Part shown: piece by piece, positions 16,994 through 17,941 of the stretch
How positions within the stretch are numbered: the first letter of the stretch is position 1
Layout: each line of letters starts with the position of its first letter
The notes under the pieces: generated by a model
What the model saw: only the letters and a program-made list of their open reading frames with translations
The model's database searches: none
What the model was told of the DNA's origin: nothing
Made by a program: the position numbers and the translations under genes
Assembly: GCA_051294905.1 (NCBI GenBank)
Contig: CM119373.1
Location: 31,124,001 to 31,188,000 of the forward strand
DNA: 64,000 bases
Source: Botryllus schlosseri
Lineage: Eukaryota
Reading direction: 5' to 3'

Positions 16994-17941
16994 ATGAAGA
17001 CTAAAGAACCCAGAAAAAGAAGAAATCTATTCAATATTGCTAGATGTGGTATAATATCAAGTGAACGAAAATGTATAAAGTTTCTGCGATCACGGCAACT
17101 CCTTGTTCAAAAGGCAACATGTTTTAATTGTGGACAACAAATGAATGAAGAAAAATGCAAAAGAACTATGGATGGATATAGATGGAGGTGTCCGGTTTCA
17201 AAGTGCCGGACTACCACGTCCATAAGGAAAAGATCGCTATTTGAAGGAAGTAAAATAAGACTCACCCAACTTGTAATGATGATTTATCTTTGGACCATAG
17301 ATGTATCTCAACGACAGATAGCTTTTGAAGCACACGTCAGCAAGAGAACAATGGTGAATTGGACCAAGAAACTTCGTAAGATATGCTCTGGGGAAATGGA
17401 AAGAAGAGGTACCCTAATAGGGGGAATATCACAAGGTAAATCACATGTAATTCAAATTGATGAGACGTTTGTGGCCAAAAGAAAATTTAATCGTGGAAGA
17501 ATAATACGCCAACGCTGGGTTTTGGCTGGAATAGATATGAAAACGCGAGAAATGTTTGCAGAATTGGTACCTGAAGAAGGGAGAAAAACCTCTGTATTAT
17601 CAGAAATAATTATGAAACACGTAAAAGAGGGATCCACTATATGGACTGATTCATTTGCCAGTTACCGCAAGTTGGAAAGCCTGGGAATGAATTATAAACA
17701 TTCAATAGTTAATCATGATCGCGAATTTGTCACCACAGAAGGCATAAATACACAATTGATCGAGGTGTCTTGGAATTTTTTTAAAGCTGCTATTAGAAGG
17801 CTGAATGGGGTATCAAGATCACTTATTCCTCATTACTTACAGGAGTGGCTCTGGAAAAGAAGGGTGGCCTTGGAGGAAAGGTTTCAACTATTTTTAGAGA
17901 TAATTGCTATTGATCCTAACTTTAGGACATTGGAACATTGA
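16994..17941 (+). CDS. Merlin/IS1595 (ISXO2-like) DDE transposase of element A
   Basis: N-terminal CxxC...C...C zinc ribbon (CFNC, RWRC, KC); catalytic IQIDET, IWTDSF, NTQLIE; HSIVNH motif; no dedicated TIRs seen around the ORF. Confidence 0.92.
   Translation: MKTKEPRKRRNLFNIARCGIISSERKCIKFLRSRQLLVQKATCFNCGQQMNEEKCKRTMDGYRWRCPVSKCRTTTSIRKRSLFEGSKIRLTQLVMMIYLWTIDVSQRQIAFEAHVSKRTMVNWTKKLRKICSGEMERRGTLIGGISQGKSHVIQIDETFVAKRKFNRGRIIRQRWVLAGIDMKTREMFAELVPEEGRKTSVLSEIIMKHVKEGSTIWTDSFASYRKLESLGMNYKHSIVNHDREFVTTEGINTQLIEVSWNFFKAAIRRLNGVSRSLIPHYLQEWLWKRRVALEERFQLFLEIIAIDPNFRTLEH

Follow-up and report, generated by a model that had tools for sequence, protein, structure and literature searches.

A second Merlin/IS1595 transposase in LTR-less, integrase-less gag-pol-envelope elements of Botryllus schlosseri with a probable circular DNA stage

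The open reading frame (ORF) at 16994-17941 in a 64,000-nt stretch of Botryllus schlosseri DNA (hereafter, the window) encodes the second of two Merlin/IS1595 transposases of a single large mobile element, element A. This is an LTR-less and integrase-less gag-pol-envelope element that, at a probability of about 0.72, is copied by tRNA-primed reverse transcription, its circular DNA being opened and inserted by the transposase. The family to which it belongs has ~60 copies, 14-50 kb in size, in this genome. Within this family, the flagged ORF is an old, selected and dispensable accessory paralog, which is neither a passenger nor the counterpart of the transposase gene of element B, the other family member in the window. 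Plain coordinates are positions within the window, G000 denotes the whole assembly (496 Mb), L numbers denote loci, and single letters denote lineages of the family.

Gene content of elements A and B

The left end of element A lies 7.8 kb before the window start, and the part upstream of the window encompasses this end, the primary transposase as the first gene, and glycoprotein-like ORFs of 838 and 1160 aa. The gene order is primary transposase, two glycoprotein-like ORFs, cargo, gag and pol, with the cargo consisting of an LRR protein, the flagged transposase, an apoptosis inhibitor, a ubiquitin-conjugating enzyme and small ORFs of no known family (Table 1). Element B encodes, in this order, the transposase, two glycoproteins, one ORF of no known family, gag and pol. 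No integrase was detected by Pfam scan in the pol of A or B, neither element has terminal direct repeats (LTRs), and no herpesvirus core genes or piggyBac transposase were found among the ORFs scanned. The preliminary description of the window credited each element with one intact transposase ORF carrying a full DDE triad. Both ORFs are indeed intact and have the triad, but A has two transposases, and the one that corresponds to the gene of B lies upstream of the window. As had been stated, the transposase of B is the first gene after the terminus, 326 bp from the end at 55273.

In both elements, a Tpt1/KptA RNA 2'-phosphotransferase domain is fused to the end of pol at the usual place of integrase (31400-31892 in A); lineage F and relatives encoded in other assemblies have also retained this domain (dN/dS 0.29). 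Just outside the left end of A, ~8-10 kb before the window, there is a 631-aa ORF on the minus strand (L032:201-2096), presumably a hAT-type transposase, judging by its motifs. At 57037-60521, there is a DNA transposon of 3.5 kb whose inverted arms measure 177 nt (93%); its ORFs, of 177 and 529 aa, gave no convincing Pfam match, and a related end is found ~20 kb before the window. In run X22, five read ends fall at 16929, just past the 184-aa ORF, and many single-cell RNA reads match 24894-24956 and then run into other sequence.

Table 1. Coordinates of the features of elements A and B (window positions unless prefixed by G000)
Feature	Position	Strand	Remarks
Element A	G000:C3:31116235-31156162	+	39,928 bp; window part 1..32162; limits from comparison with three other full copies
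Primary transposase of A	G000:C3:31116529-31117473		first gene; 40% identical to flagged ORF
Cargo, LRR protein of A	15256..16305	+	dN/dS 0.18
Cargo, 184-aa ORF, no known family	16370..16924	+	constant upstream neighbour of second transposase
Second (internal) IS1595/Merlin transposase of A	16994..17941	+	315 aa; N-terminal cysteine pairs; D156/D219/E257
Cargo, inhibitor of apoptosis of A	19086..20780	+	three BIR domains and RING
Cargo, ubiquitin-conjugating enzyme of A	22525..22980	+	domain scan
Spliced-leader copy of A	25086..25109	+	exact host 24-nt spliced-leader exon, upstream of gag
Primer-binding site of A	25335..25352	+	18 nt, exact complement of tRNA-Ile(AAT) 3' end with CCA
gag-like ORF of A	25660..28482	+	940 aa, CCHC knuckle
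pol of A	28575..31895	+	protease DTG, RT (YIDD), RNase H, C-terminal Tpt1/KptA; stops 267 bp before right end
Right end of A	32153..32162	+	…CACTAGTTCC
8-bp target duplication of A	32163..32170	+	other copy just before left end
8-bp target duplication of B, first copy	35823..35830	+	
Element B	35831..55273	-	19,443 bp, ends GGATCAAGTG … AAATAGATCC
pol of B from first ATG	36325..39093	-	RT, RNase H, Tpt1; protease further up, same open frame
gag-like ORF of B	39507..41969	-	820 aa
Primer-binding site of B	42208..42222	-	15-nt match to tRNA-Ile(AAT)
Spliced-leader copy of B	42429..42452	-	exact
Glycoprotein 2 of B	47717..51319	-	1200 aa; N-terminal part related to glycoprotein 1; Ser/Thr-rich stalk; membrane anchor
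Glycoprotein 1 of B	51423..53828	-	801 aa: signal, RxxR, hydrophobic stretch, long helices, membrane anchor
Primary transposase of B	54009..54947	-	first gene after left end; dN/dS 0.134 over 6 copies
8-bp target duplication of B, second copy	55274..55281	+	

Primary and second transposases

The intact ORFs 16994-17941 (315 aa) and 54009-54947 (312 aa) have products that are 45% identical and match the Pfam family DDE_Tnp_IS1595 with E values of 2.6e-17 and 1.8e-13, respectively. With the NCBIfam IS1595 model, the former scores 96.7 bits and passes the cut-off of 75, and the transposase of element B scores 64.7 bits, which is under the 75-bit cut-off. All five sequence blocks that the preliminary description had quoted as common to the two proteins are present. 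The D156/D219/E257 triad is conserved in 42 of 42 aligned transposases, as are two N-terminal cysteine pairs, free Merlins included. The Zn_Tnp_IS1595 finger gave no Pfam match at E 0.01; eukaryotic Merlin is described in the available text of PMC8101967 as lacking this N-terminal finger. A protein search with the flagged transposase produced one relative, 73% identical, encoded on a short contig.

The census of the family covered the best 102 of 125 transposase matches and the best 70 of 90 reverse transcriptase (RT) matches and left out short fragments and matches of 27-29%. Among these best matches, a primary-type transposase is encoded on the same strand at 59 of the 66 family RT loci, so it is not absent from most members of the family. 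The second type is found at 30 of 66 loci and never without a primary copy. Linkage to RT was seen for 29/29 second-type, 58/61 primary-type and 0/12 free-type transposases among the best matches (chance, 0.006 each). The seven RT loci that have no linked transposase include a duplication-flanked internal deletion, three short unplaced contigs, two inverted or nested fragments and one unresolved case. The earlier view of the transposase as a core gene rather than a passenger thus holds for the family transposase; it does not hold for the ORF 16994-17941, which is accessory, although passenger insertion is not supported either.

In a transposase tree in which the non-element sequences were the four free Merlins of this genome only, the element transposases form a single clade (100/100) apart from these four, three of which have long terminal inverted repeats (TIRs); a grouping of the two transposases with separate free Merlin families was not observed. 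The flagged ORF falls into a separate clade (100/98) with representatives from lineages A, G and J and one copy from lineage C. A topology with the second transposase outside the primary clade was not rejected (p-AU 0.077), and the second transposase may be either a duplicate that arose within the family or a related Merlin captured in a second event. In the co-phylogeny of transposase and RT, the primary transposase and pol gave concordant trees (Mantel r 0.885, p 0.0001, nine lineages). When pairs with dS <0.02 and loci without a long open frame are left out, dN/dS is 0.109 for the primary transposase and 0.157, over 22 copies, for the second one, the pairs not being independent.

Neither transposase has ends of its own, in agreement with the preliminary description: scans of the flanks of both ORFs found no credible TIR/duplication pair. 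Specifically, there is no GG..CC pair with an 8-bp direct repeat within 2.5 kb of 16994-17941 or, at 28 of 28 loci scanned, within 1.5 kb of the second-type transposase. One GG..CC/8-bp pair near the B transposase was rejected because its arms are unlike and it would cut the glycoprotein gene. It is therefore very improbable that the flagged ORF is a passenger Merlin that was inserted into A and lost its ends, with free Merlins inserting the elements in trans. Such an origin would agree with the absence of the flagged type from more than half of the RT loci and with its placement outside the primary clade not being rejected, but it is at odds with the purifying selection on this ORF, with its constant location in four lineages, whose copies are 49-100% identical and branch in an order consistent with that of pol, and with the greater similarity of its product to the element transposases (35-47% identity) than to the free ones (30-34%). 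The 184-aa ORF directly precedes the second-type transposase in all 29 loci. The status of a dispensable paralog is reflected in the absence of the second transposase from several lineages that insert with perfect duplications.

Ends, target duplications and empty sites

All termini start with GG in every lineage for which the ends were located, and the GG...CC pair bounds the whole element and not the ORF. The terminal motif is present in 29 of 30 A-type left ends, and for 24 of these the right end was in the set; the 24 paired ends show an exact 8- or 9-bp duplication in 21 cases, one mismatch in one and no duplication in two. Outside the A-type group, an exact 8-bp duplication was found in 19 of the 19 cases where both ends were located (B, 5/5; E, D and C, 2/2 each; H, I and J, one each; short derivatives, 5/5). 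The inverted match of the element ends is only ~10 bp long and imperfect, with 8 of 10 positions shared between the right end CACTAGTTCC and the left end GGTACTTGTG of A; in the free Merlins of the same genome, the arms are at least 430 bp long in three of four, and these elements have their own duplications.

Empty sites were identified for both elements. The empty allele of A, with a single copy of the 8-mer, is represented by contigs of runs X1 and X10, and loose ends occur at 32163. For B, a joint between 35822 and 55274 with 8 shared letters is seen in one contig of X5 and in 571 RNA reads of X24, which shows that this element interrupts transcribed host sequence. GG termini and target duplications of 8-9 bp are the features by which Merlin is defined in the available text of PMC8101967. 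Merlin-type ends and 8-bp duplications on whole elements that have no integrase strongly support the earlier proposal that, in this family, the transposase replaces integrase, and to judge from these sequence features whole-element integration is very probably the work of this transposase family.

Five derivatives of 10-14 kb (L235-L244) encode neither transposase nor RT. They retain both ends, the 8-bp duplication, the leader, the primer site and remnants of gag and protease. Since these derivatives have spread as well, the transposase appears to act in trans, and some movement by plain DNA transposition is possible.

A host repeat flanks both elements (32163-32870 and 55555-55583) and contains GC-rich palindromes with a shared 29-nt motif. 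The palindromes at ~32766-32870 and 55555-55583, which are presumably the terminal palindromes of the preliminary description, lie outside both elements, as A ends at 32162 and B at 55273, and were discarded as termini. Contig depth is very high in the bin across the right end of A. At G000:C5:10285872-10339541, a single left end has two right-end partners, which are 14 kb apart and are each followed by the same 8-mer, the result of either a later duplication or an assembly artefact.

Evidence for reverse transcription

A copy of the host spliced leader is located upstream of gag in 27 of 29 elements examined and is exact in 24 of the 29, and the 24 nt that precede it match those of A at only 3-13 positions. 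This 24-nt leader, which we take to be that of stolidobranch ascidians, is present on RNA reads of this host. It appears as a chordate spliced leader in the available text of PMC3795323. There are 236 exact copies of the leader in G000, and among the first 100 listed, many are located ~5 kb upstream of either a right end or an RT of the family. In A (25086-25125), as well as in L173, L155 and L199, part of the 3' end of the leader is repeated behind the leader copy, a pattern that repeated trans-splicing or a misaligned strand transfer would produce.

The primer-binding site is found ~230-420 nt behind the leader. In 21 of 27 leader-bearing elements, it matches tRNA-Ile(AAT), tRNA-Thr(AGT) or tRNA-Gln over 18 nt with at most one mismatch, and in three B copies a 15-nt match to tRNA-Ile was found. 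In lineage C, the site of one copy corresponds to tRNA-Thr(CGT), and that of its near-identical sisters to tRNA-Thr(AGT). For lineages D and H, none of the tested tRNAs fitted the primer site. A scan of the 2.5 kb upstream of the leader detected no conserved polypurine tract. Exact primer sites that switch tRNAs among close relatives are an outcome of primer copying. Because exact 18-nt sites switch tRNAs within the transposase-bearing clade, copying from a tRNA primer is needed, and reverse transcription appears to have gone on after the fusion of transposase and retroelement.

The RT domain, at dN/dS 0.029 (four full A copies), is the most constrained gene measured, and RNase H-Tpt1 has a dN/dS of 0.132 among 25 copies. 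These values, together with the switching of host tRNAs and the selection that also acts on the envelope-like and cargo genes, would be hard to understand if the family were a giant cut-and-paste Merlin transposon with a retroelement and host genes as cargo and with no use of RT in its movement. We consider such a transposon distinctly improbable, even though the ends and duplications are purely Merlin-type, RT-less derivatives move, and no circle junction was seen in the assembly or in the reads on B. Along the window copy of A, the nearest of three other A copies changes, which fits recombination.

Circular genome and lineage F

Lineages C and J (L151-L153, L161-L168 and L197-L200) have the same cyclic gene order as the other lineages and are opened after glycoprotein 2 instead of after pol. 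Their nearest pol relatives are opened after pol, so the opening point has changed at least two times. In addition, a single mid-element primer site without terminal repeats implies that redundant full-length RNA would come only from a circle or a tandem.

Lineage F (L183-L191, L205-L212 and L250-L254) is represented by five transposase-less copies that encode pol, a 233-aa ORF, one glycoprotein, cargo and gag and have the leader and a Gln primer site. In pol and gag, the breakpoints of these copies vary and no ends are common to them; one copy contains inversions, and a transposase is nearby in none of the four F-type RT loci. The 233-aa ORF, which occupies the place of the transposase elsewhere, was rejected as a transposase by Pfam, NCBIfam and profile comparison. 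The pattern in lineage F is that of a circular virus that would have been integrated by accident. The host leader copy, the use of four different host tRNAs by the primer sites, the two opening points and the scattered breakpoints of lineage F all point to a circular reverse-transcribed genome.

The existence of this sister lineage without transposase, as fragments, is also what would be seen if the family were a free circular virus that needs no integration and of which the transposase occasionally deposits dead-end copies. An integrated copy opened between pol and transposase, unless it is freed, cannot template a full leader-to-leader RNA, and the copies are mosaics that differ by 0.1-0.5 at synonymous sites, which is what independent insertions out of a virus population would give. 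Still, a gene used only for dead ends would not stay at a dN/dS of 0.11-0.16 with an intact triad in nine lineages, and the short derivatives, in which ends, leader and primer site are intact, have multiplied to new sites. Such a free virus is accordingly an unlikely explanation.

No junction of joined ends was found in the assembly. None was present among the joints listed for the reads on B, which is a weak test given that RNA coverage of the elements is thin, with a depth on B of mostly <1 and 3-6% of each RNA run read. In the unplaced contig C125, the right end is followed by other sequence and forms no junction, and the matches listed in the literature search included no paper on circle formation by a Merlin transposase. 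From the arrangement of the genes and sites, a full cycle through a circle with joined ends is nonetheless probable.

Proposed cycle

In the proposed cycle, the transposase would free the element, and both ends would be joined as a circle. The circle would be transcribed from a start near the spliced-leader copy for one round plus a little, yielding terminally redundant RNA. The RT would then prime on a host tRNA ~250-400 nt behind the leader, and the DNA would be rebuilt within Gag particles that could be enveloped by means of the glycoproteins. Finally, the transposase would cut at the joined ends, and insertion would follow with an 8-bp stagger. It is the primary copy, beside glycoprotein 1, that is universal. 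The flagged paralog, intact in four lineages, is likely to be a back-up or a partner in excision or insertion that is not needed in cis.

We lean slightly towards a broader scenario, in which there is a hitherto undescribed group of enveloped circular reverse-transcribing animal viruses, functionally equivalent to plant pararetroviruses, that use the host leader as the 5' mark of their genome RNA. In one branch of these, capture of a Merlin transposase together with its ends would have given rise to a provirus able to integrate and excise, in effect a retroelement with a cut-and-paste transposase as its integrase, the second paralog possibly allowing excision and insertion to be divided between the two enzymes.

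Placement of the RT and the glycoproteins

The family RT and its relatives in other public assemblies, which are 33-69% identical, form their own clade (100/100) on a long stem, with lineage F as the deepest family branch (95/80). In an unrooted tree with 23 Gypsy-type and ten caulimovirid-like sequences (the latter thinned from 42), this clade lies outside the caulimovirid-like sequences (100/100), is attached weakly (90/69) beside one long Gypsy-type row, and is not firmly inside the 23 Gypsy-type sequences. Among solved structures, the RT is best matched by chain 8r0s, which we take to be the cauliflower mosaic virus enzyme (E 9e-35, versus 2e-25 for Ty3). A close caulimovirus link suggested by this ranking was rejected, as the tree places the family outside the caulimovirid-like clade. 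No integrase is listed in six relatives from other assemblies over 730-1080 aa, and a search of viral and metagenome contigs with the pol alignment found no related loci.

Glycoprotein 1 has the same layout in ten lineages, namely an RxxR site, a hydrophobic stretch, long helices and an anchor. No Pfam or PDB match was found for the glycoprotein. Its Atlas look-alikes are class I fusion proteins at 0.86-0.88, which serves as a lead only, and the models of both glycoproteins are poor (pLDDT 35 and 44), which makes a fold search from them meaningless. As a lead, glycoprotein 1 is likely to be a class I fusion protein.

Comparison with known systems

A search of the open literature (outside subscription journals, Repbase and supplements) found no account of Merlin or IS1595 transposases integrating a retroelement, and, as far as the open literature goes, this combination of mechanisms is new. 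The classification of mobile elements separates movement through RNA from movement as DNA. The present family joins the copying machinery of the RNA class to the ends, target duplications and transposase of the DNA class. Conversion between retrotransposons and pararetroviruses has long been proposed in both directions. In the present genome, a transposase-less state, in fragments, and a transposase-bearing one, with precise and polymorphic insertions, lie side by side, and the acquisition of integration enzymes by reverse-transcribing viruses becomes directly testable. The family would also be the first natural substrate on which to test whether Merlin transposases of eukaryotes circularise their ends, and it would show a Merlin transposase moving 40 kb between ends of ~10 bp.

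Caulimoviridae of plants have protease, RT and RNase H without integrase, one primer site, a circular genome and a tRNA-Met primer. The present family likewise has protease, RT and RNase H without integrase or LTRs and one primer site and is likely to be circular, and the fragments of lineage F, with their scattered breakpoints, resemble passively integrated endogenous caulimovirid copies. In contrast to Caulimoviridae, it has an animal host, envelope-like genes and Ile, Thr or Gln primers, and its RT falls outside the caulimovirid-like clade. In DIRS, Ngaro and VIPER, a tyrosine recombinase takes the place of integrase. These retroelements resemble the present family in that integrase has been swapped for another integration enzyme, but here this enzyme is a DDE transposase encoded by a separate gene, the insertions have 8-bp duplications, and envelope-like genes and a large cargo are present.

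With the errantiviruses, the envelope-carrying Ty3/Gypsy elements that are found in tunicates too, the family shares gag, protease-RT-RNase H, a tRNA primer site and an envelope-like gene (available text of PMC13524379). According to the same text, the errantivirus survey required a full integrase and would therefore have excluded the present elements (PMC13524379). Unlike errantiviruses, these elements have no integrase and no LTRs, carry Tpt1 at the end of pol, have an RT on its own long stem and, in most lineages, have the envelope genes upstream of gag.

Typical Merlin/IS1595 transposons, as described in the available text of PMC8101967, share with the present elements the DDE_Tnp_IS1595 domain, GG termini and 8-9-bp duplications, but have terminal inverted repeats of 24-462 bp, whereas the ends here are imperfect and ~10 bp long. 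Instead of a single gene, the elements contain one or two transposases among 5-25 other genes, and these transposases branch apart from the free Merlins of the same genome and have conserved N-terminal cysteine pairs.

The nearest analogue is Teratorn, a piggyBac transposon fused with an alloherpesvirus (PMC6431247, PMC10175614). In the available text of these two papers, Teratorn likewise has a virus-like genome within short inverted ends, a DDE transposase from a DNA transposon and captured host-like genes, and excision to a circle is put forward there too, as a proposal only (PMC6431247, PMC10175614). The elements described here differ from Teratorn in that the viral part is reverse-transcribing, with gag, protease, RT, RNase H and a primer site, and in that the transposase is of the Merlin/IS1595 type, with an 8-bp duplication of varied sequence and an element size of 14-50 kb.
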